Positions 41,737 through 49,880 of a stretch of DNA of 64,000 nt are shown piece after piece (the stretch's first letter is position 1; each line of letters begins with the position of its first letter). Both the position numbers and the translations under genes were made by a program. A model generated the notes under the pieces. It was not told where the DNA came from. It ran no database searches and saw only the letters and a program-made list of their open reading frames with translations. Origin of the DNA: Parcubacteria group bacterium M6-OD1-1 (GTDB taxonomy: Bacteria > Patescibacteriota > Minisyncoccia > GWC2-36-17 > M10-OD1-4); NCBI GenBank assembly GCA_003056085.1, contig LSNK01000001.1, positions 88,729-152,728 of the forward strand, read 5' to 3'.

Positions 41737-42415
41737 AAACCGGCAACCCAAAATAAAACTCCTTGCTTTAAAAACAAGGAGTTTTATTTTAGACATATTT
41801 TTCCCTTCTTTTTGTGTTACTTGCAAGAAAGAAGGAGTTTTTTTGTGCAAAGACTGCAAAAAGAGAATAGATATATTTAAAACTCCATCTCACTTCCCCA
41901 AAAAATCAAAATTGGAAATTTTTTACTGCGCAACAAAATACAAACAAGACGAAATAGAAAAATTAATTTACAGCTTTAAATATCAATTTATAAAAGAAAT
42001 TAAAAATGAACTTTGTGAAATTTTAATGGAACATCTTAAAATATCCGGGTTCAAAAAAAACAGCAGCCAAGTTTTAATACCTGTGCCTCTCCACAAAAAA
42101 CGACTAAGATGGCGAGGCTTTAACCAGTCTGAAATTTTAGCAAAAGAAATTTCAGATCATTTTGATATACCAATGATAACAAATGTGCTTTTCAGAAAAA
42201 AATACACAGAACCGCAGACTTTAAAACAAGACAGAAAAGAGAGAATTAAAAATGTTAAAAATGCTTTTTTGTGTAAAAATATTGAAATTATAAAAGACAA
42301 AGAAATAATTTTAATTGATGATGTTTTAACAACAGGCGCCACTTTAAAAGAGTGTGCTAAAATCCTCTCAAAAAATAATATAAAAAAAATAATCGCCATA
42401 ACAATAGCAAAATGA
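41726..42415 (+). CDS. comF: ComF-family protein (phosphoribosyltransferase domain, N-terminal Zn finger)
   Basis: CVTCKKEGVFLCKDCKK Zn ribbon then PRTase motif ILIDDVLTTGATL. The true start probably lies downstream of the annotated overlap with clpC. Confidence 0.75.
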   Translation: MRTKNRQPKIKLLALKTRSFILDIFFPSFCVTCKKEGVFLCKDCKKRIDIFKTPSHFPKKSKLEIFYCATKYKQDEIEKLIYSFKYQFIKEIKNELCEILMEHLKISGFKKNSSQVLIPVPLHKKRLRWRGFNQSEILAKEISDHFDIPMITNVLFRKKYTEPQTLKQDRKERIKNVKNAFLCKNIEIIKDKEIILIDDVLTTGATLKECAKILSKNNIKKIIAITIAK

Positions 42416-42453
42416 CAACTTTGGGGACGACCGTCCCCAAAGTTGTCATTTTG
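42413..42453 (+). terminator. Rho-independent terminator after comF
   Basis: tgacaactttggggacg/accgtccccaaagttgtca then ttttg. Confidence 0.7.
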
Positions 42454-42553
42454 AAATTCTAAAAATTTCTGTATTATAAATACTCAAAGATATTGCAAAC
42501 CGGCAAAAAAAATGATAACTTACTATTTATCAAACAAAATTCCGTTATAAAAC

Positions 42554-42620
42554 GGAGAGGTGGCTGAGCAATCGCCCCGTAAAAAGGCAGCGGTCTTGTT
42601 CCCAATTTATTCAAATCTTT
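42554..42620 (+). pseudogene. 5' tRNA-Ser-like fragment (acceptor plus D-arm) with divergent tail
   Basis: GGAGAGGTGGCTGAGC... identical to the first 16 nt of the intact tRNA-Ser(TGA), then diverges (cgccccgtaaaaaggcagcggtcttg-ttcccaatttattcaaatc). Confidence 0.5.
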
Positions 42621-42678
42621 AATTTGGTGATAAATTGCAATCCCGAAATAGAATTTGTTTGCAATTTGATATTAGAGC

Positions 42679-42800
42679 GGAGAGGTGGCTGAGCGGTTGC
42701 TCCCTGTTTGTCCAAGAGCAGTAGCGATTGGCTAACAAACAGCAGTACAGCGAGGCGAAGCCGAGTCGTAAAGGCGATAGTCTTGCTCCCGATTTGTTCA
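42679..42800 (+). pseudogene. Disrupted tRNA-Ser-like copy carrying a 58-nt hairpin insertion in the D-loop
   Basis: GGAGAGGTGGCTGAGCGGT, then the insert 42698..42755 (tgctccctgtttgtccaagagcagtagcgattggctaacaaacagcagtacagcgagg), then CGAAG-ccgagtcgtaa-AGGCGATAGTCTTG-ctcccgatttgttcaaatc. No anticodon or T arm. Confidence 0.5.
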
Positions 42801-42823
42801 AATCATTAATAATTTATAAAGCG

Positions 42824-42909
42824 GAGAGGTGGCTGAGCGGTCGAAGGCGATAGTCTTGAAAACTATTGTACGTTCACGCGTACCGAGGGTTCGAATCCCT
42901 CCCTCTCCG
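42824..42909 (+). tRNA. tRNA-Ser (TGA), type II with long variable arm
   Basis: GGAGAGGTGGCTGAGCGGTCGAAGGCGATAGTCTTGAAAACTATTGTACGTTCACGCGTACCGAGGGTTCGAATCCCTCCCTCTCCG, anticodon loop CTTGAAA. Confidence 0.85.
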
Positions 42910-42956
42910 CTTTGTACGATATTATGATTTGATTACAAATCGCAGTGCTGTGCAAA

Positions 42957-43010
42957 AACTATTGTACGTTCACGCGTACCGAGGGTTCGAATCCCTCCCT
43001 CTCCGCTCTG
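42957..43010 (+). pseudogene. Direct repeat of the 3' half of tRNA-Ser(TGA) (anticodon-loop to 3' end), att-site-like
   Basis: aaaactattgtacgttcacgcgtaccgagggttcgaatccctccctctccgct is identical to 42856..42909. It generates the artefactual ORF 42866..43090. Confidence 0.6.
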
Positions 43011-43080
43011 GTATTAAATCAAATTTTATTCGGGAAAAACGTTGCTCCGCTTTGCAACGGAAAATTAATTTACCAAAAAA

Positions 43081-43153
43081 GCGCCCATAGCTCAGCTGGT
43101 AGAGCAGTCGCCTCTTAAGCGAACGGTCCCAGGTTCAAGTCCTGGTGGGCGCA
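43081..43153 (+). tRNA. tRNA-Lys (CTT)
   Basis: GCGCCCATAGCTCAGCTGGTAGAGCAGTCGCCTCTTAAGCGAACGGTCCCAGGTTCAAGTCCTGGTGGGCGCA, anticodon loop CTCTTAA, one mismatch in the anticodon stem. Confidence 0.8.
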
Positions 43154-43203
43154 CAAGAAAATCAAAATTATAAAATAAATTAGTTTACAATTTAATCTTA
43201 TAT

Positions 43204-43330
43204 GAAGAGGTGACTGAGTGGCTGCTCCCTGTTTGTCCAAGAGCAGTAGCGATTGGCTAACAAACAGCAGTACAGCGAGGGCTCCCATTTTATTCACGCT
43301 TGCGTGAGTACAAAATGCAGTGCTTTAGCC
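43204..43330 (+). pseudogene. Disrupted duplicate of tRNA-Ser(GCT) 5' part carrying the same 58-nt insertion
   Basis: GAAGAGGTGACTGAGTGG, then the insert 43223..43280 (identical to 42698..42755), then unrelated sequence. The upstream 25 nt (tagtttacaatttaatcttatatg) are duplicated from the intact gene's promoter region. Confidence 0.5.
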
Positions 43331-43399
43331 TTTAGCCCGAGTCGTAAAAGTGACATATATACTTTATAATAAAAGATAGTTTACAATTTAATCTTATAT

Positions 43400-43488
43400 G
43401 GAGAGGTGACTGAGTGGCTGAAAGTGACACCCTGCTAAGGTGTTGTACGGGTTAAACCGTACCGAGGGTTCGAATCCCTCCCTCTCCG
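43400..43488 (+). tRNA. tRNA-Ser (GCT), type II
   Basis: GGAGAGGTGACTGAGTGGCTGAAAGTGACACCCTGCTAAGGTGTTGTACGGGTTAAACCGTACCGAGGGTTCGAATCCCTCCCTCTCCG, anticodon loop CTGCTAA. Confidence 0.85.
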
Positions 43489-43501
43489 CAATAGTAAAAA
43501 G

Positions 43502-43531
43502 GAAGTGCTAATTTATTAGCGCTTCTTTTTT
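43502..43531 (+). terminator. Terminator after tRNA-Ser(GCT)
   Basis: gaagtgctaat-tt-attagcgcttc then tttttt. Confidence 0.55.
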
Positions 43532-44039
43532 ACTTCTGTGAAGTAGGGATTCGAAGAATCCTCCCTGTTTGTTCAAATTTTCACCTAAAAGGTACAGGTA
43601 ATTTAATAACAAAACGCAGTACCTTTAGTGTAAGCCATTCGTTTTTTTATTTTATGATGTCTATTGGATAAAATCCGAACTTATTTTAAACAGAACCCCG
43701 ACTAATCACGTGCCGAGCGCATGGTAACTCTAAACTTTCTCTTACGCTTCTATGAATTGGTAATTCTGTCGGTGTGTTTCCGTCCACCCCTGCTGTGTTG
43801 CGATGAACCAAAACAGAAATTTTTTCAATACATTTTTTTAATTTTTTTCTGTCCTCATCTTTTTCTTTTAATAGAATTTGTGAAGTGCCCTGCGGGTGAA
43901 AAAATTTTTCTGTTTGGGGTTTCCTCTTAACCAGAGAAAAGCGGAAACGTTCTAATCTGAATCGCAAGAAGAACAAAATTCCTTCCCCCATCACACCTAT
44001 GCGCGAGCAATATAAAGGAATTCCCTGAAATTTCAAAAG

Positions 44040-45581
44040 CTATTGACGTTCAAATACCTCTTTTAATTGAGCGCGAGTCTTTGGTCCGACCAAGCCGTAT
44101 CCGGTAGTTTTTTCATCTCCAAAAGAAACAATATCGTGTTTTTTTTGAAACCTTCTTACTGCGTCTTGAGTAAGTTGTCCAAAATATCTAGTCTCATTGC
44201 TCGCTGAGCCGGAGCCTTGATCGGCAAGTTTTGTATCAGGGTCTGAATTGAGCAACTGTTGCAATTCTTTTACATCGTCATTCTGCATTCCAAATCGAAG
44301 AGTTTTAATAAACACAGCCAAAATAGGTTGAGTCGGCGTTTCCAGCTGTTGAATAGAAGGGGTTTCCGTTGGTATTTCTGTGGGTTGTTGTAAAAAAGAA
44401 TTCACAAACGCTCTGGTTGACGGCCCGAAAAAACCAGTGCCTCTTTTTAATCCTATAGGAGCCAAAATTTTCGAGGCGTGCTTTTGCTGGTATATAATGA
44501 GTGCTTTTTTGGTTAAAGGCCCGAAGTATTTGGTTTCGTTGCCCGGAGAACCTGGGCCTTGATTCGCCAAAGGATGCAGTTGGTTTAAGAATTTTTGCAA
44601 AGTTTTGACATTTTCTCCTTTGTCGCCAAAACGCATATTGCGCTTAAAAAGCACTACTGTTGTAAAATGTTCCTGTGGAGGTAATTGAAAAATCTTTTTG
44701 GGAGCATAAATAACACTATCGGAGATAACTTTTGAATACCGTACATATTTGTTAGAAAATTTAACATAGAGTGTTTTTTCTCCATATTTTCCCGATAAGA
44801 TCCATGAGGTTGAAGTAGTGTAATTGATATATATAGCTGGAGAGAAGTTTAAATTATCCGCAATAGCAATTTTTTCAGCATCCGGTCCGCCTTCAAAATT
44901 AAGAATGACAGTAGCGTCATTAGTAATATCTGGAATTATGAAAAATTTAAATCCGTCATCTGGTTCAGTTAGAGGAGGCGGAGTCCAGCCACCACCACCT
45001 CCGCTAATAGGGTCAGTTTCGTCAGTGTCGCTAGCTGACGAGCAGCCGGGATCTGAAGGATAATCAATTAGACCATCGCCGTCATCATCAAGAGAATTAT
45101 TGCAAGCCGCCCGCGCGCTTTGAGGACGCCAATCTGTTTTGACTTTAAAATCAGATGAACCGCAAGAGCTGGCATTGGCGCAATTAAAACTAATTTGGCC
45201 TGTTACAGTGCTTGAAGCGTAGCCGCTGAAATATCCCGAGCTACCAATAGTAACACCGGAAAAATCTACCCAGCCGGTATTTTCTCCCCAAGCTGAGCCG
45301 GACAATATTCCTTCGCCGTTATTGTTAACGCCTGAACCGTCTGGATTAAGGTTGATCCAACCGTAATTGGCGCTCCATGTATATCCGGTCATGCCTGTAT
45401 CAGTAATGGCTACACTGCCGCCGGATACGCCAAAATTTATCCAACCGGCATTTTCCGACCAAGCGTATTTATATGTAGAGTCAATTGTGCCGTTGGTTTC
45501 AGAAGCGAAAGCAAAACTTGGCAATAATAGAATTATAGATGTTACTAAAATAAAAAATAATTTTACGTATTTTAATTTCAT
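44040..45581 (-). CDS. Secreted protein with W-S/G-E-N-x-G-W-I/V-x-F repeats and two C-terminal peptidoglycan-binding-like repeats
   Basis: Signal peptide. Repeats AWSENAGWINFG / TWSANYGWINLN / AWGENTGWVDFS. Acidic DDDGDGLIDYPSDPGCSSASDTDETDP segment. The helical bundle pattern ...GDKGENVKTLQKFLNQ...YFGPLTKKALIIYQQKH (PG_binding_1-like) occurs twice at the C-terminus. Confidence 0.6.
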   Translation of the reverse strand: MKLKYVKLFFILVTSIILLLPSFAFASETNGTIDSTYKYAWSENAGWINFGVSGGSVAITDTGMTGYTWSANYGWINLNPDGSGVNNNGEGILSGSAWGENTGWVDFSGVTIGSSGYFSGYASSTVTGQISFNCANASSCGSSDFKVKTDWRPQSARAACNNSLDDDGDGLIDYPSDPGCSSASDTDETDPISGGGGGWTPPPLTEPDDGFKFFIIPDITNDATVILNFEGGPDAEKIAIADNLNFSPAIYINYTTSTSWILSGKYGEKTLYVKFSNKYVRYSKVISDSVIYAPKKIFQLPPQEHFTTVVLFKRNMRFGDKGENVKTLQKFLNQLHPLANQGPGSPGNETKYFGPLTKKALIIYQQKHASKILAPIGLKRGTGFFGPSTRAFVNSFLQQPTEIPTETPSIQQLETPTQPILAVFIKTLRFGMQNDDVKELQQLLNSDPDTKLADQGSGSASNETRYFGQLTQDAVRRFQKKHDIVSFGDEKTTGYGLVGPKTRAQLKEVFERQ

Positions 45582-45916
45582 AAAATAATTTTACGAAGAA
45601 TTTTTATTTGCCAACCGACCTATTTTTACTTCCATTTCGCAAATAGACAATATTGACAACTTCCACCTTTTTATCACCGTCATATATATAAAGGAACTTT
45701 AACGCATTTTTTCGTAGCTGTTATTAGTGTTCTTATAGAATCAGACACGCCTTTTTGATAGACAGTTTTTAAATATCGCGTTTTAAATTTCTGCCATTGG
45801 TCGTGGGCAACATAACCAACGGAAAATACAGCTCAAACAACAACAATAAAAATTAAAATATTTTTTTAGTTATAATATTTTTTTCAGTCATACTGGTTAA
45901 ATAATTATTTTTCATA

Positions 45917-47887
45917 TTATTTATAATAATCTACCCATCCACCTAATAATGTATATCCAGTTCCAACATGAAGTATTAAATAATTACTAGCGGTTGATTT
46001 TACGACTCTAGCTCTATAAATATCGCTGTAAGAAACATCAGTAATGACTTCTTCTTCAGAATTAGCAATATTTAATACTTGTATAGCACTATTTATGATA
46101 CCTCCATTGGCGCCAATATTAAGAAAATTATATCCGTTAACCCAAGTAGAAGATATATACATCCGATAAACTGCACCATACCTACCACCTTGTTGGTCAG
46201 GACTGTAATATGCAATACCATCTGCAGGAACTACATAAGCACCATCCGAAACCCTCTTTAGTCTTCCAGCAAAGCCACCAGAGCTTATGCCATTTCCGTC
46301 AATTCTTGCTATCACAGCATTGTTTGCATAAATATCAAAAATTCCATCTGAAACCCAATTAAAGCCAGTATCACTATCTCCTATCGCTAAGTCAATAGAA
46401 GGAGAAGCGCTAGTCCCAATACCAACATTTCCAATTGAGGTTATTCTTACTCGCTCAACATTATTCGTATAAAATTCAATTTGTCCGTCAGCCGTACTAA
46501 ACATACCTCCGTCTGTATCACCTGGGGAAGTAAAAGAGTATCCACCACCGTTGGAAGGGGTAGCTCCTTTGGCTCTTATTTGCCCGTTTACTTCTAGCTT
46601 TACATTTGGGGCGCTGTTTCCAATGCCGACATTACCAGTGTCTAAAATAGTAAATATATTAGTGCGAGTATAAGATCCGTCATCAGCATTTACTCTTAAC
46701 CCTACATCTGTTTTTTGCCATTCAGCCCAAGTGGATGTTGCAGAATTTTCTTTTAAATAAATTGCGGCCGCTAAACTGCCAGTAACCATAATTTTGGTAT
46801 CACCACCACTTACTTCTAAAAGCTGAGCAGGAGCGTTAGTCCCAATACCAACTTTTGCATTTAAAATATTTACTTCATCAGTTGTTTGGTCGTCAAATTC
46901 AATTCTTCCGGCAGCTGCGCCCAAACCGAGCCAATCACCTGTTGCTGTTGAATCAGCAAAAGCTGCGCCTGTTGTCATAGACCCTACTTTGGTAATATCT
47001 CCAGATCCTACGCTCGTCCATGCAGGATTGGCACCTGCCCCAAGAGTTTTTAGAAGTTGTCCTGATGTTCCCGGAGATAGATTTACCCAATTAGTTCCAT
47101 TAAAATATATAATGTCTCCTTGACTGGCTGTAATACCAGCAATGTCTGTAAGGTAGGCGTTACCGGCTTGCTTAGCATTCCAAGTAGAGGCCGAAGAAAT
47201 ATATGAATCGCCAATAGCGGTGCCATTCCATACGCCCGTTGCAATTGTACCTAATGTGGTAATATTTGATGTTCCCGCCCAAATTGATAAGGCAGTATTT
47301 TCTACATTGCCAAGACTAAGATTAGTTCTAGCCGCTGCGTAGTTAGCAGAACCAAGCAATGTCTGGATATTTGCGGAAGGCGTAATTCCAGCGTAAGTAG
47401 TTAAGTCAGCGTCATATGCTTGAACATTTGTTCCAATAACCAAACCCAAGTTAGTTCTGGCGGTAGAAGTACTGGCTAAATCTGAAAGATTGTTAGTTGA
47501 AAGAAGATCTCCTCCTCCACTACTAATAGTGCCCCACGCAGGATTAACGCCTGCTCCAAGAGTTTTTAGAAATTGCCCTGACGTCCCTGGAGCTATATTT
47601 ACCCAATTAGTTCCATTAAAATATATAATATCTCCTTGACTGGCTGTAATGCTTGAAATATCTGTGAGATAATCATTTCCATTCTGTGGAGTATTTACTG
47701 TACAGTTAGTGTCTCCTGGAGCGCAAGTTGGAGATAGAGTCTCTCCAAGATTATATGACGATCCTGGTGGAGCAGCCAAGGCAGTGTAAATAAAGGTTGA
47801 GAAAGCAATGATAAAAACACCAAGCAAAAACTTACTGCTTGTTTGCAGGACATTTATAACAGTGAGTAATTTGTGTAAATTTCTCAT
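45917..47887 (-). CDS. Large secreted tail-fibre-like repeat protein
   Basis: Signal/TM N-terminus. A 57-aa unit YLTDI(S/A)(S/G)ITASQGDIIYFNGTNWVN(I/L)(A/S)PGTSGQ(F/L)LKTLGAG(V/A)NPAW is duplicated. Ser/Gly/Thr-rich beta-type sequence, 656 aa. Confidence 0.6.
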   Translation of the reverse strand: MRNLHKLLTVINVLQTSSKFLLGVFIIAFSTFIYTALAAPPGSSYNLGETLSPTCAPGDTNCTVNTPQNGNDYLTDISSITASQGDIIYFNGTNWVNIAPGTSGQFLKTLGAGVNPAWGTISSGGGDLLSTNNLSDLASTSTARTNLGLVIGTNVQAYDADLTTYAGITPSANIQTLLGSANYAAARTNLSLGNVENTALSIWAGTSNITTLGTIATGVWNGTAIGDSYISSASTWNAKQAGNAYLTDIAGITASQGDIIYFNGTNWVNLSPGTSGQLLKTLGAGANPAWTSVGSGDITKVGSMTTGAAFADSTATGDWLGLGAAAGRIEFDDQTTDEVNILNAKVGIGTNAPAQLLEVSGGDTKIMVTGSLAAAIYLKENSATSTWAEWQKTDVGLRVNADDGSYTRTNIFTILDTGNVGIGNSAPNVKLEVNGQIRAKGATPSNGGGYSFTSPGDTDGGMFSTADGQIEFYTNNVERVRITSIGNVGIGTSASPSIDLAIGDSDTGFNWVSDGIFDIYANNAVIARIDGNGISSGGFAGRLKRVSDGAYVVPADGIAYYSPDQQGGRYGAVYRMYISSTWVNGYNFLNIGANGGIINSAIQVLNIANSEEEVITDVSYSDIYRARVVKSTASNYLILHVGTGYTLLGGWVDYYK

Positions 47888-48104
47888 ATAGCTTCTATTT
47901 CTACTAAACTTACTTTTTTATATTAATTCGGTAAAGAAATTAATTAATTTATAATCGCGATTTTTTGACAAAATTGATTTAAGTATATTTTTTTATAATT
48001 CTAATATTTGTATAATACCATATTTTCAATTATAATAATATCTGTCAATATGAAATATTAAATTAACACTTAGGTAGTAGTAATAAATTAAATACTCTAT
48101 CTTA

Positions 48105-48332
48105 ATGTTAGTATTATATTTTAAAGTTATGTCAAGTAATCAAAACTTATCAAAAAATATAAAACGATTAAGGAAAACCAAAGGGCTCTCACAAGAAAAA
48201 TTGGCGAGACTGGCCGATGTCGCCAATAATACCCTTATTAAAATGGAAACAGGGGAAAATAAAAATCCAACACTTAAAACCTTAAAAAAGGTTGCAAACG
48301 CCTTTGGGGTTAGTGTTGATGATTTAATTTAA
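48105..48332 (+). CDS. XRE-family HTH transcriptional regulator
   Basis: LSQEKLARLADVANNTLIKMETGEN is an HTH_3 motif, 75 aa. Confidence 0.8.
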   Translation: MLVLYFKVMSSNQNLSKNIKRLRKTKGLSQEKLARLADVANNTLIKMETGENKNPTLKTLKKVANAFGVSVDDLI

Positions 48333-48355
48333 TTAACTAATTTTATTTAAAAATT

Positions 48356-49357
48356 ATGGAAAATACATCAAAAAAACACATTGTTCTAAAAATTTTATTA
48401 GCATTATTGCCTGCTTTAATCTTTACACAAAATTACGCTTGGATGACGCTTAATTCGTTTACAGGAGTAGCTTTTTTGATTATTTGGGCGTTAATGATTT
48501 GGAGTGTTTGGCAATTCACAGAAAAGAACTATATTATTGAAAGATTTTTTCGCCTAACGGAAATATCTTTCTTTTTACTTCCTTTGTCAGCTATCATTTT
48601 TGCATTTGTTCTTGGCTCTCAAGTAGTTACCTCTACATCAAACGAAATTGAGCAAGCTGGAGCTGCTTTAGGTACGGCAATAGGTGGAACTTTTGCAGTT
48701 ATCTTAGCTTTTATTATTGGGCTTATAGGGGGTATCATCATGCACTTAATAACCAGCAAATATGATAAAAAAGCAGAGGCGTCTGAAGTAAAACAATCAG
48801 AATCTTTATCGAACAAACACGGCGTTATCCTTTCACTCGTTGCCGTGATTACTCTTGCTATTATCATAGGTTCTATTTCAAGTGCTCAACAATCCGCACA
48901 AATTACTAAAGAAAAGGAAGAATTAAGTAATAGCTTACAACAGAGCGGAATAAATCAAACTGATACAACGGAAACAGAACAAATAAAAACAGAAAACAAA
49001 AAAGTCACGATAGAAATTATGAGTAAAAATTTTCATGAGGCAGATTATATGTCAGGCGATTATCAGGATCAAATCACAATGGATTTGAAATTTACCAACA
49101 CTACCGATAAAGAAATAAGAGGAGTTGAGGGCGTGCTTACTTTTTACGATATTTTTGATAATAAAATATCCGCGACAAAAGTAAGTTACGACAAAGGAAT
49201 CCCCGCAAACGAAAGCAAAGTTTGGAAATCTGGAACAAACTATAATCAATTTATGGATGAGGATATAAAGTTGAGAAACACTGAACTAAAAGACTTGAAG
49301 TACAAATGGGAAGTTTCAACGATTATTTACACCGATGGCAGTAAAGAAACATTATAA
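48356..49357 (+). CDS. Membrane protein with C-terminal extracytoplasmic beta-rich domain, partner of the XRE regulator
   Basis: Several N-terminal TM helices, a Gln/Ser linker and a C-terminal about 130-aa domain. Adjacent to the HTH gene, 24-nt gap. Confidence 0.6.
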   Translation: MENTSKKHIVLKILLALLPALIFTQNYAWMTLNSFTGVAFLIIWALMIWSVWQFTEKNYIIERFFRLTEISFFLLPLSAIIFAFVLGSQVVTSTSNEIEQAGAALGTAIGGTFAVILAFIIGLIGGIIMHLITSKYDKKAEASEVKQSESLSNKHGVILSLVAVITLAIIIGSISSAQQSAQITKEKEELSNSLQQSGINQTDTTETEQIKTENKKVTIEIMSKNFHEADYMSGDYQDQITMDLKFTNTTDKEIRGVEGVLTFYDIFDNKISATKVSYDKGIPANESKVWKSGTNYNQFMDEDIKLRNTELKDLKYKWEVSTIIYTDGSKETL

Positions 49358-49366
49358 ATATGGGAA

Positions 49367-49705
49367 TTTTTAACACAATTATTGATAAGCACAAAGCAAC
49401 AAAGCAAAAATCTCTAAATAAAAAAGAATTTAGGGAAGCTCTTTTGCATGCCGTTGATGATGGAAAATTAACTAAAAAAGAAAACAGAACTTGGTTTAAC
49501 CGATGAAGATGTAAAAAGCATGCGTGTAGAGATTTTTACCACCGCTTTTTCGGTCGCAAAAGAAGACAAGCAAGTTACGGAAGAAGAGAAAAAAGAACTG
49601 AAAGAAATCCAAAAATATCTTGGAATTGCAGATGACGAAATACAAACAACAAAAAAAGAGCTTAACCGCTCACGGTTCCAGCACGAGGTTGCTCACAATA
49701 ACTAA
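49367..49705 (+). pseudogene. TerB-like small protein gene split by a frameshift at an A-run
   Basis: ATG 49367 encodes MGIFNTIIDKHKATKQKSLNKKEFREALLHAVDDGKLTKKE... and stops at 49505. The +1 frame continues ...ELGLTDEDVKSMRVEIFTTAFSVAKEDKQVTEEEKKELKEIQKYLGIADDEI to 49705. The junction lies at aaaaaag (49472-49478). Confidence 0.4.
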
Positions 49706-49880
49706 AATACCAGACTTTTATCTGGTATTTTAGTTATTGTAATCGATTGTAATTTTTATACAAAATAAATGCCCTCTACTAATAAACTACTTCATCGCAT
49801 TTCAATAAAACAAAAACTTTGATATAATAATACAAAAAGGTCATCTAATTTATTTATTAATAATTAAATATAAAAATACA

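Follow-up and report, generated by a model that had tools for sequence, protein, structure and literature searches.

A likely non-autonomous mobile element of two unlike hairpins in nested tRNA-Ser gene copies and protein genes of Patescibacteria

The window, as the whole 64-kb stretch of DNA analysed is called here, contains a cluster of intact and broken tRNA-Ser genes (Table 1). An exact 58-nt string occurs twice in this cluster on the + strand, at 42698-42755 and 43223-43280, with 0 mismatches; 58-mer repeats expected by chance number 0 (100 dinucleotide-preserving shuffles). Each copy is preceded by a 5' fragment resembling tRNA-Ser (GGAGAGGTGGCTGAGCGGT at 42679, GAAGAGGTGACTGAGTGGC at 43204). 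The original prediction of one identical element carried twice by tRNA-Ser pseudogene copies is confirmed on both counts. Between the two 58-mers the element shows no difference, but their 5' flanks mismatch at 3 positions out of 17; the copies therefore do not belong to a single long duplication.

A longer element, named E, has the 58-mer as its core and reads 5'-CTCCC, hairpin P1, GCAGT, hairpin P2. The predicted location in the D-loop was correct and the predicted extent was not, since the first two bases of the 58-mer, tg, are tRNA sequence and E continues through P2. E begins at CTCCC (42700 and 43225), reaches past the 58-mer into the second hairpin and stops at ...GAGTCGTA (42770 and 43346). 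E1 and E3 have a common 3' end (CCGAGTCGTA at 42761 and 43337), and their sole difference is the P2 tip, GGC-GAA-GCC in E1 and GGGC-TTTA-GCCC in E3, where E4 is nested. Six members of the family (E0-E5) are found in the window, all within 1 kb and none in the rest of the 64 kb. The 5' motif of E has 6 exact matches in 64 kb and the 3' motif has 5 (0.43 expected), all of them inside this 1-kb cluster.

Three tRNA-Ser genes lie one within another, with L0 outermost and L2 innermost. E0 and E2 are each inserted in the anticodon loop of a dead tRNA-Ser(TGA) copy, the two copies being successive ones, and the junction of E0 in L0 is the same as that of E2 in L1 (repeat D6). The intact tRNA-Ser(TGA), presumably functional, sits inside the E2 stem, the P1 loop of which holds the gene plus its leader and trailer. 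A remnant in the L0 D-loop (AATCGCCCCGTAAA) may be a decayed E copy. The inverted T-arm copy next to E5 resembles the 5' end of module X of other genomes. A 5.9-kb strain-variable island is found directly downstream of tRNA-Ser(GCT); no integrase or defence genes were found in this island beside the cluster. A promoter/terminator scan across the cluster was uninformative, and neither a ComF-anchored metagenome scan nor a tRNA-Ser-body scan detected relatives of the locus.

Table 1. Coordinates of the tRNA-Ser copies and E copies in the window.
Feature	Position	Strand	Remarks
L0, outermost, oldest tRNA-Ser 5' fragment	42554..42598	+	Up to ...GGTCTTG in anticodon loop; repeats D2, D6
E0 core	42599..42641	+	Diverged E (TTCCC-AATTTAT...ATAAATT-GCAAT); after CTTG in L0 anticodon loop
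E0 P2	42642..43034	+	Arms 42642-42657 and 43020-43034 (inverted repeat I14); encloses whole L1 unit as cargo
L1, 5' part of middle tRNA-Ser(TGA) copy	42679..42699	+	nt 1-21; C->T at 42698
E1	42700..42770	+	71 nt; CTCCC-P1-GCAGT-P2; L1 D-loop at TYG^AAGG
L1, middle	42771..42785	+	nt 22-36, AAGGCGATAGTCTTG
E2	42786..42954	+	Between 2nd and 3rd anticodon bases of L1 (CTTG^AAAA)
E2 P1 arms	42786-42806 and 42924-42948		Inverted repeat I6
L2, innermost, intact tRNA-Ser(TGA)	42823..42910	+	ARAGORN; Rfam tRNA 59.4 bits
L1, 3' part	42955..43007	+	nt 37 to 3' end; 98% identical to L2 (repeat D1)
L0, 3'-half remnant	43035..43051	+	AAAAACGTTGCTCCGCT; its flank pairs with L0 leader (inverted repeat I8)
Duplicated leader and nt 1-21 of tRNA-Ser(GCT)	43168..43224	+	tRNA part 43204-43224, one substitution; repeat D4, 91% over 57 nt
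E3	43225..43346	+	74 nt minus passenger; homologous D-loop position, CTG^AAAG
E4	43282..43329	+	48 nt, short P2; nested in E3 P2 loop, GAGGG^CTTTAGCCC
tRNA-Ser(GCT) pseudo-copy	43347..43355	+	nt 22-30; truncated after
Intact tRNA-Ser(GCT)	43400..43489	+	ARAGORN, Rfam
Inverted, diverged tRNA 3' end / T-arm copy	43526..43560	+	Abuts E5; inverted repeats I3, I15, I16
E5	43561..43630	+	AT-rich P1 tip, short P2

The bounds of E were set by direct reading and exact reconstruction, automated excision with ARAGORN being too noisy (it mostly returned neighbouring intact tRNAs). When E1 and E2 are deleted in silico, joining 42679-42699, 42771-42785 and 42955-43006, a complete tRNA-Ser(TGA) with one substitution is obtained. 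Deletion of E3 rebuilds nt 1-30 of tRNA-Ser(GCT), and deletion of E4 restores the P2 hairpin of E3. Because excision rebuilds the host sequence, the insertions of E are precise, lie 3' of a G and carry no target-site duplication; at E1, E2, E3 and E4 the host is restored exactly. Nesting of E in E at two loci of the pattern scan described below (L093 and L111) is likewise without duplicated bases.

The G at -1 of the junction is part of the target. It is present in 107 of 124 E copies among the matches listed, with A and G/T favoured at -3 and -2. Target sites include the D- and anticodon loops of tRNAs, the loops of other hairpins and the loops of E itself. Sites of the G^AA type, for example, are also used in the anticodon loops of scan loci L030 and L069 and as GCG^AAGC in the element's own tip. 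Some targets lie outside loops, as in tRNA-Gln, where the site GGTAGG^AC is in the D-stem. The orientation of E is set by the strand that bears the target. Among the matches listed, 40 of the 43 copies beside a tRNA run in the same direction as that tRNA; relative to neighbouring ORFs there is no orientation bias. Most E-bearing tRNA hosts are truncated fragments beside an intact copy, and several of the 5' fragments start exactly at tRNA +1. In a tRNA gene that the cell needs, E would be lethal; it persists where the tRNA copy is partial or redundant, between genes, and at frame-keeping sites in protein genes.

E is about 48-75 nt in size and its two hairpins are unlike each other. The basal stem of P1 has 7 bp and covaries freely; P1 further comprises a YCAA/TTGR stem, tandem G.A mismatches and a tip, most often GCGAAGC. 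The sequence of P2 is variable. The predicted fold of E1 is two hairpins on either strand, and the nested inverted repeat first noticed in the 58-mer is real. In P1, 98.6% of the cells are paired. Both sides of a pair have changed in 82 cells, compared with 24.8 ± 3.3 in shuffles (0/500) and no more than 8 in slid controls. The P1 tip, CAA-GA-GCGAAGC-GA-TTG, is conserved even where the search pattern left positions free. A GA-stem-GA design is common to P1, P2 and module X. The DNA mini-hairpin d(GCGAAGC) is extraordinarily stable, with a Tm of 76.5 °C, whereas the Tm of r(GCGAAAGC), a related 8-mer in RNA form, is just 39 °C (PMC13037366). The P1 tip of E has the same sequence as this hyperstable mini-hairpin. 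Mismatches in P1 are 11 G.T and 7 A.C, about equal, and folding energies are alike for DNA or RNA and for the + or - strand, so these comparisons do not tell apart which strand folds, or single-stranded DNA from RNA as the active form.

Further copies are widespread. A pattern scan detected E in at least 119 loci, and of the matches listed about 110 are in Patescibacteria/CPR genomes (MAGs), several of which carry 5-7 or more copies. A single tandem duplication with no other copies, the case that would have told against the original prediction, does not apply, since the flanks differ and more than 100 further copies exist elsewhere. Viral contigs gave one match, likely a chance one. E is also found within its own tip (scan loci L093, with 3 levels, and L111), in head-to-tail tandems and next to partial tRNA copies. 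Rfam 15 has no match to E at gathering thresholds or at E-values up to 10, nor any in the related loci, which bears out the earlier view that this is not a group I intron. No description of E was found in Rfam or the searchable literature. Among 75 tRNAs of E-bearing genomes, partial tRNA copies flanking intact tRNAs comprise 27 3' copies and 15 5' copies. At its end, the conserved module X carries a direct repeat of the 3' end of the tRNA from the T-loop on, a classical crossover site.

E also occurs inside protein genes. It is found in frame within UvrC, an RluA-type protein, ABC-F, Mfd and SMC, with recognisable domains on both sides, and the frame is kept in 15 of 22 gene-internal candidates, a count that rests on the scan loci themselves. 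The in-gene inserts measure 54, 69 and 72 nt, each divisible by three. In Mfd, orthologues provide reciprocal empty sites, and E can lie antisense yet in frame (scan loci L095 and L024). The encoded peptide is mostly ...APxLSKSEAIGxKxQS.... Across E copies, the depletion of stop codons is strongest in the two frames in which E is read within genes; the absence of stops from all six frames was considered as well and is true only for the GC-rich consensus. Compared with PDB homologues, the RluA-type protein has E in a naturally variable loop, so no clean insertion is visible there; the Mfd pair shows one. A search of a 5.8-billion-protein database with the encoded peptide gave no match, with only 2 word candidates, and is thus uninformative.

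Together, these features suggest that E is likely a non-autonomous mobile DNA element of Patescibacteria/CPR, comparable to Rickettsia palindromic elements (RPEs), REPs and IS200-type hairpin elements. The miniature, MITE-like mobile insert of the original prediction holds up as a mobile insert (a multi-genome family, precise, self-nesting, with reciprocal presence and absence in Mfd) and is MITE-like only loosely. In contrast to a classical MITE, E has no terminal inverted repeats and leaves no target-site duplication, and its inverted repeats, P1 and P2, are internal and mutually different. The element would move as folded single-stranded DNA, with a trans-acting enzyme that would recognise the conserved P1 tip and the CTCCC and GCAGT single strands. 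By analogy, its handling may be similar to that of IS200/IS605 and REP hairpins by HUH-Y1 transposases. At its insertion sites, E is joined into one strand directly 3' of a G.

RPEs are short palindromic selfish repeats found in frame within unrelated housekeeping protein genes, where they are translated as extra peptide (PMC10969869). E is similar in being short, palindromic and in frame in unrelated protein genes, in having no associated transposase known and in residing in small reduced genomes. RPEs occur in RNA genes too. They are about 100-150 bp, form several sequence families and are confined to Rickettsia; E, at 48-75 nt and in Patescibacteria, is set apart by size and host. It also differs from them in its CTCCC-P1-GCAGT-P2 order, GCGAAGC tip, superphylum range, G-specific junction without target-site duplication, self-nesting and association with tRNA copies.

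REPs are single hairpins of 20-40 bp with a GTAG or CGTC tag (PMC3733652). Like REPs and BIMEs, E is a small imperfect palindrome present in many copies, and REPs are believed to be processed as hairpins of single-stranded DNA, the foot of which has conserved single-stranded bases. Unlike REPs, which lie outside genes and on either side of their RAYT gene, E is also found inside genes, has two hairpins and carries CTCCC/GCAGT instead of the tag; the palindromes around the RAYT-like genes observed here are of other kinds, not E. IS200/IS605 elements insert strand-specifically 3' of a short target without target-site duplication, and have subterminal hairpins and single-stranded DNA intermediates. 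E likewise lacks a target-site duplication and is inserted 3' of a short sequence in one orientation, but its target is far less specific than a tetranucleotide. IS200/IS605 elements and PATEs have similar hairpins at both ends, a 4-5-nt target and a TnpA-encoding parent; E has unlike hairpins, needs little more than a G and has yielded no parent.

Two other systems have features in common with E. In archaea (Thermoproteales), tRNA introns 'transpose' between tRNA genes and positions, and split and permuted tRNAs are known. Like E, these introns are short, nearly identical inserts that different tRNA genes carry at one and the same non-canonical position; they form a bulge-helix-bulge in functional genes and are spliced by an archaeal endonuclease, whereas the bacterial hosts of E are truncated pseudo-copies and also proteins, and both orientations of E occur. 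Integron attC sites and the CTX-phage attP(+) site are folded single-stranded DNA hairpin substrates with conserved structure and variable sequence. They require an integrase and a partner site, and attC bounds gene cassettes; E is dispersed and lacks R'/R'' core boxes, and its surroundings yielded no integron-type integrase.

No mobilising enzyme for E was identified. Y1_Tnp genes exist in E-bearing genomes. Y1 (IS200-like) transposase genes are present in 5 of the 119 scan loci, and none is encoded in the 64-kb window. RAYT/Y1 transposases were considered as the mover and set aside, the 5 genes being flanked by their own, different palindromes and not by E. Among the 119 scan loci, no matching E ends more than 140 nt apart enclose an ORF, as a parent element would. 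The case for mobilisation by a Y1 HUH transposase on single-stranded DNA is circumstantial: the hyperstable tip is of the DNA type, and some of the genomes have Y1 genes, although these are tied to other repeats.

The conservation of P1 can also be read differently. E may be a functional host motif, either a site on single-stranded DNA for priming or protein binding or a structured RNA module, that is kept by selection and moves only incidentally. We regard this as unlikely. The P1 tip is nearly invariant across distant CPR classes while the basal stem covaries, GCGNAGC mini-hairpins serve primase and RNA-polymerase recognition on single-stranded DNA, and the GA-stem-GA design recurs, all as expected of such a motif. 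Its sites, however, look haphazard (dead tRNA copies, its own loops and the surface loops of unrelated proteins, in either orientation), its copy number and position vary between orthologous genes, and all copies of the 64 kb lie in one decayed tRNA region.

Very unlikely, in our estimate, is that E is an intervening sequence at the RNA level, removed or tolerated by CPR processing and spread by reverse splicing and reverse transcription, so that the interrupted L1 could still give a tRNA. The multiple-of-three lengths and the depletion of stop codons would be needless if E were spliced out, and the copies in protein genes lie in both orientations and are still in frame (the two antisense Mfd copies). 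The tRNA hosts, mostly truncated with an intact copy alongside, fit this reading poorly, as do the absence of any Rfam intron or ribozyme match, even at the relaxed threshold, and a tip motif that is hyperstable as DNA and much less so as RNA. It would account for the sense-strand bias of the tRNA-adjacent copies, the perfect cloverleaf gene that is left once E1 and E2 are removed, the conserved single-stranded CUCCC and GCAGU around a covarying helix, the 5' fragments that start exactly at +1 and the G.U-type pairs in the leader-trailer helices of the tRNA-Ser units.

A scar of integrase-mediated recombination at tRNA genes, with the hairpin as part of an att site, is highly improbable for E. 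The footprint of site-specific recombination at the D-arm, offered in the original prediction, is likewise not supported. The partial copies that very often flank intact tRNAs, the repeat at the end of module X and the strain-variable island downstream of tRNA-Ser(GCT) speak for it, but E is inserted at several places in tRNA genes (D-stem, D-loop, anticodon loop and beyond the 3' end) as well as in protein genes, its own loops and tRNA-unrelated intergenic DNA and leaves no repeat of its target, and no integrase was found in the neighbours of the window or in either version of the island. The att-scar reading may apply to module X rather than to E, and the partial tRNA copies around E may have another origin.

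That the second 58-nt copy arose by duplication or gene conversion between the tRNA-Ser 5' fragments, and not by independent insertion, is just as improbable: the homologous D-loop position, the T for C that L1 shares with the GCT copy two bases upstream of E1 and the 100% identity over 58 nt plus 10 nt speak for it, but the tRNA flanks, with the 5' mismatches given above and a 3' similarity of only about 60%, leave little homology for conversion, the P2 tips differ, G^AA-type sites are independently occupied elsewhere, and even if true it would explain the second copy and not the element.

A wider version of the mobile-element reading, which we consider doubtful, joins E, module X and an in-frame 'element Z' in one CPR-wide system, where one conserved enzyme moves tiny single-stranded DNA hairpins into tRNA-gene loops and coding sequence. 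If this were true, functional tRNA genes would time and again be replaced from within, which would give the three-level nest of tRNA-Ser genes, and essential proteins would be continually seeded with new peptide segments. In a still bolder variant, sense-strand E copies would be removed from RNA by a bacterial splicing activity.

A large part of the diversity of bacteria belongs to the CPR/Patescibacteria, and their tiny genomes are thought to be poor in mobile elements. As a mobile element, E would rank among the commonest CPR repeats, superphylum-wide, about 50-75 nt long and present in tRNA gene copies and conserved proteins. It would also be a second, independent case of the 'selfish DNA inside proteins' known from Rickettsia. 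Its defined architecture (a tip identical to d(GCGAAGC), a G-specific junction and no target-site duplication) makes the search for an enzyme directly testable. The nested tRNA-Ser genes would be a record of successive gene replacement at one locus. E has practical consequences as well. It adds segments of 16-24 residues to proteins, which affects alignments and structure prediction, and it makes tRNA pseudogenes that confuse annotation. It can also break assemblies. For example, in a near-identical Saccharibacteria MAG the contig terminates exactly at the same E5 copy (scan locus L068).

E is probably a mobile DNA element. Its established traits are a defined two-hairpin structure (5'-CTCCC, hairpin P1, GCAGT, hairpin P2), precise insertion 3' of a G on one strand without duplication, nesting within itself, and survival only in tolerant contexts. 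The 58-nt sequence of the original prediction, the core of E, does occur as two exact copies (42698-42755 and 43223-43280; 0 expected by chance), and each is preceded by ~20 nt from the start of a tRNA-Ser-like sequence, as claimed. Region reading and repeat mapping place the 58-mer in a local repeat family. In the 64-kb window the 5' motif YTCCC-NN-TTTRT-YCA has six matches without mismatch and the 3' motif ACAAA-NN-GCAGTRC five (versus 0.43 expected), all within 42599-43622 and none in the rest. The NN pairs of the motifs covary (TG/CA, GA/TC, AA/TT, AT/AT). Copies in other genomes show that the second hairpin beyond GCAGT is part of the element, which explains why CCGAGTCGTA is shared at 42761 and 43337. 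The predicted fold of copy E1 has exactly two hairpins, P1 and P2.

Copies of E and intact tRNA genes in the window
Feature	Position	Length and placement	Basis
E0 core	42599-42641		exact reconstruction
E1	42700-42770	71 nt	exact reconstruction
E2	42786-42954		exact reconstruction
tRNA-Ser(TGA), intact	42823-42910		
tRNA-Lys, intact	43081-43154		
E3	43225-43346	74 nt + nested 48-nt E4	exact reconstruction
E4	43282-43329	48 nt, within P2 loop of E3	exact reconstruction
tRNA-Ser(GCT), intact	43400-43489		
E5	43561-43630		exact reconstruction

An intact tRNA-Ser(TGA), altered only by one C->T substitution, results when 42679-42699, 42771-42785 and 42955-43006 are joined; 43204-43224 plus 43347-43355 likewise give nt 1-30 of tRNA-Ser(GCT) with one change. 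Since this in silico rejoining restores the tRNA sequence, insertion of E is precise, and the target-site duplications that the original prediction suggested looking for are absent at the rejoined window sites. The exact reconstruction also assigns the G before CTCCC to the target and not to E. In the window E enters the D-loop at TYG^AAGG and at CTG^AAAG; in the anticodon loop it enters at CTTG^AAAA, separating the second anticodon base from the third. Among the matches listed, 107 of 124 copies have a G directly before CTCCC, and A is preferred at -3 and G/T at -2. An intact tRNA lies within 300 nt of 43 of these 124 copies, 40 of the 43 being on the tRNA's strand, and orientation relative to neighbouring ORFs is unbiased; this combination is as expected of a strand-specific target and not of a bias due to replication or transcription.

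The wider search for copies, also proposed originally, used the pattern CTCCCNNTTTRTYCA-N(8-38)-AYAAANNGCAGT on one genome per species and found at least 119 loci. All comparison loci were found with this window-derived pattern; it under-samples copies that have diverged or carry cargo, and its fixed columns are uninformative on conservation. About 110 of the loci are in Patescibacteria/CPR MAGs (among the matches listed, Saccharibacteria, Paceibacterota, Azam-, Niyogi-, Kaiser-, Wolfe-, Zambryski- and Nomurabacteria), and several listed MAGs carry 5-7 or more copies. The few non-CPR matches, with poor stems, look like chance matches, and the viral contig scan gave a single, chance-like match. 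One Saccharibacteria MAG contig (L068), 98-99% identical to the window, ends exactly in E5, which shows that the repeat breaks assemblies.

A 45-nt core, CTCCC NN TTTGT YCAA GA GCGAAGC GA TTGR NN ACAAA N'N' GCAGT, is the most frequent form among the matches listed. P2 always follows GCAGT directly in these copies and is variable in sequence, either short (CCTTTAGGG type) or long (CCAGC-GA-GGC-loop-GCC-GA-GTCGTGG type). Across 13 P1 pairs in 64 distinct cores, 98.6% of cells are paired, with compensatory change at 6 pairs; both-side changes number 82 cells versus 24.8 ± 3.3 when shuffled (0/500 shuffles reach it) and at most 8 with slid partners. The P1 tip is nearly invariant at positions left free in the search pattern. 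Such invariance would suit a functional motif of the host, but the placements look haphazard, and this explanation is unlikely.

Many copies lie in proteins: 48 of 124 among the matches listed are within long open frames. Recognisable hosts are UvrC, an RluA-type synthase, an ABC-F ATPase, Mfd and SMC, with domains flanking E on both sides. Sense copies almost always have the phase G|CTC CC.., giving (A)PxLSKSEAIGxKxQS, and in-gene inserts are 54, 69 or 72 nt long. In two Mfd orthologues E occupies different positions; at each site the other orthologue cleanly lacks the 24 residues, and one copy is sense, the other antisense. By an unbiased count among the matches listed, 22 copies lie between two coding frames and 15 of them keep the frame; stop codons are rarest in the two used frames (21% and 10% of copies versus 57% shuffled). 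The same in-frame behaviour has been described for Rickettsia palindromic elements (PMC10969869). Constraints on frame, length and stops would be needless if E were spliced from RNA. An intron is thus quite improbable, the antisense in-frame copies, insert lengths in multiples of three, truncated tRNA hosts and lack of an Rfam match (no family even at E <= 10) all speaking against it. A different short in-frame repeat, 'element Z', encodes GNPRTERAE(R/Q)SPYDG and occurs three times in the Mfd gene of locus L095, being absent from the L026 orthologue; E is inserted within it (...CGACGACTG^GCTCCGC...) in five loci of different CPR lineages (L095, L024, L042, L055, L108).

E also inserts into itself. 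It is nested in its own tip (GAGCG^AAGCG) at three levels in locus L093 and once in L111, without duplication, and head-to-tail tandems occur among the matches listed. A recurrent layout in those matches is a tRNA 5' fragment, then E, then an intact tRNA 40-210 nt downstream. The hosts are tRNA-Gln (E after nt 22; at least 8 loci), tRNA-Ser (after nt 36: L030, L069) and tRNA-Glu. Directly after E the tRNA sequence continues before it is cut short in L065, L030, L034, L119 and both window copies, so that E resides in partial, dispensable tRNA copies. Partial copies are common: 75 tRNAs of the listed loci and the window gave 27 3'-end copies (last 17 nt repeated 40-420 nt downstream) and 15 5'-end copies (first 17 nt repeated upstream). 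Six of the 15 have no abutting E, and several partial copies have no E nearby; E therefore probably survives at sites where it does no harm and is not the origin of every fragment.

In the window three tRNA-Ser genes form a nest. Within the P1 stem of E2 (42786-42806 / 42924-42948) lies the intact tRNA-Ser(TGA), along with ~15 nt of its leader and trailer, which pair mutually (inverted repeat I6). The interrupted copy L1, with its own leader-trailer pairing (I5), sits inside the P2 stem of E0 (42642-42657 / 43020-43034; I14). E0 in turn breaks a still older tRNA-Ser copy, L0 (42554-42598), whose 3' half is reduced to a remnant at 43035-43051 (I8). The live gene is thus innermost, and each older shell is a tRNA-Ser split by E at the identical anticodon-loop position, L1 being split in the D-loop as well. 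An E-with-tRNA composite may have replaced the disrupted gene, or a tRNA cassette may have been inserted secondarily at the hairpin tip. On the tRNA-Ser(GCT) side, the leader and nt 1-30 are duplicated in tandem (direct repeat D4), and the upstream truncated copy holds E3 and E4. Leader-trailer pairing extends ~12-16 bp past the acceptor stem in tRNA-Ser units (window 42664-43019, 42807-42924, 42540-43062; L030, L069); the helix sequences vary among copies and include G.U-type pairs. This suggests that the precursor has a conserved extended helix, or that the unit is a hairpin cassette.

That E is the scar of an integrase at tRNA genes, proposed originally as a recombination footprint at the D-arm, is very unlikely, since many E sites lie outside tRNAs, insertion leaves no repeat and no integrase was found nearby. 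Such a reading may instead suit module X, a conserved unit of ~85 nt with several hairpins, which lies downstream of many different tRNAs (GGAATCGAACCGCGGG^CCGCAG, a GAAGA-loop hairpin, then CGAAGGTYTCGAGC-loop-GCGAGAGGCG). Module X starts with an inverted T-loop copy, ends with a direct repeat of the same tRNA's 3' end from the T-loop, is absent from Rfam, and may be a separate tRNA-targeting miniature element or att-like module. E is often inserted at its ^ (L022, L070, L073, L086, L099, L047); uninterrupted examples are L015 (~2040-2150) and L040, and window 43526-43560 is a degenerate 5' part only. Mere duplication or conversion of the two 58-mers is scarcely credible: the tRNA-like flanks have 3 differences in 17 positions, against none in the element (D3), so the copies are not one long duplicated block, the case originally named as refuting, and the E family would be left unaccounted for.

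E resembles several known systems. Like Rickettsia palindromic elements (RPEs) it is an in-frame selfish palindrome, and with REPs and IS200/IS605-type elements it shares hairpins, lack of duplication and a strand-specific target. However, E lacks the GTAG/CGTC tag of REPs and is not extragenic, it fails the defining tests of each of these families, and its size and host range differ. The MITE-like mobile insert first envisaged is supported as to mobility (self-nesting, a multi-genome family) but is MITE-like only loosely, there being no terminal inverted repeats and no target duplication. Literature searches in several vocabularies, of partial coverage, gave no description of E; an earlier one is possible.

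A trans-acting enzyme would recognise E in what would be its active form, folded single-stranded DNA. This idea draws mainly on the P1 tip, GCGAAGC (variants GCGTAGC and GCAAAGC among the matches listed), identical to a hyperstable DNA mini-hairpin. d(GCGAAGC) is extraordinarily stable (Tm 76.5 C), the RNA counterpart of a related 8-mer, r(GCGAAAGC), melts at 39 C, and hairpins of this type serve single-stranded DNA recognition by primases and phage N4 RNA polymerase (PMC13037366). Mismatch asymmetry and folding energies single out neither strand and neither DNA nor RNA. A single-stranded DNA, HUH-like step in E movement is a tentative proposal, rather doubtful as yet. No cognate transposase for E was found. 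IS200-like Y1 transposase genes, present in 5 of the at least 119 loci and not encoded in the 64-kb window, give no evidence for a mobiliser: the palindrome flanking each gene is a simple one of its own, not E. These RAYT-type genes (L003, L007, L032, L081, L087) have perfect palindromes, e.g., ATGTTTGGACCTCGGAGGTCCAAACAT in L081, so classical RAYT-REP systems are also present in CPR genomes.

In two loci (L044 450-491 and L114) a 5S rRNA gene has an E copy just downstream, beside an apparent inverted 5S fragment. A LOOT RNA (RF03000) in L025 (7573-7692) is apparently unrelated to E. Immediately downstream of the tRNA-Ser(GCT)/E5 region is a strain-variable island (~43850-49750): in L068 ~5.0 kb of unrelated genes replace the 5.9-kb island, with 98-99% identity on both sides. 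The island has a G+C of 0.38-0.39 versus about 0.31-0.33 and encodes a PG_binding_1 protein and ORFs without Pfam or PADLOC match; neither version contains an integrase. A 27-bp near-perfect inverted repeat at 42403-42458 (AATAGCAAAATGACAACTTTGGGGACG / CGTCCCCAAAGTTGTCATTTTGAAATT) overlaps the stop of a ComF-like gene and is probably its bidirectional terminator.
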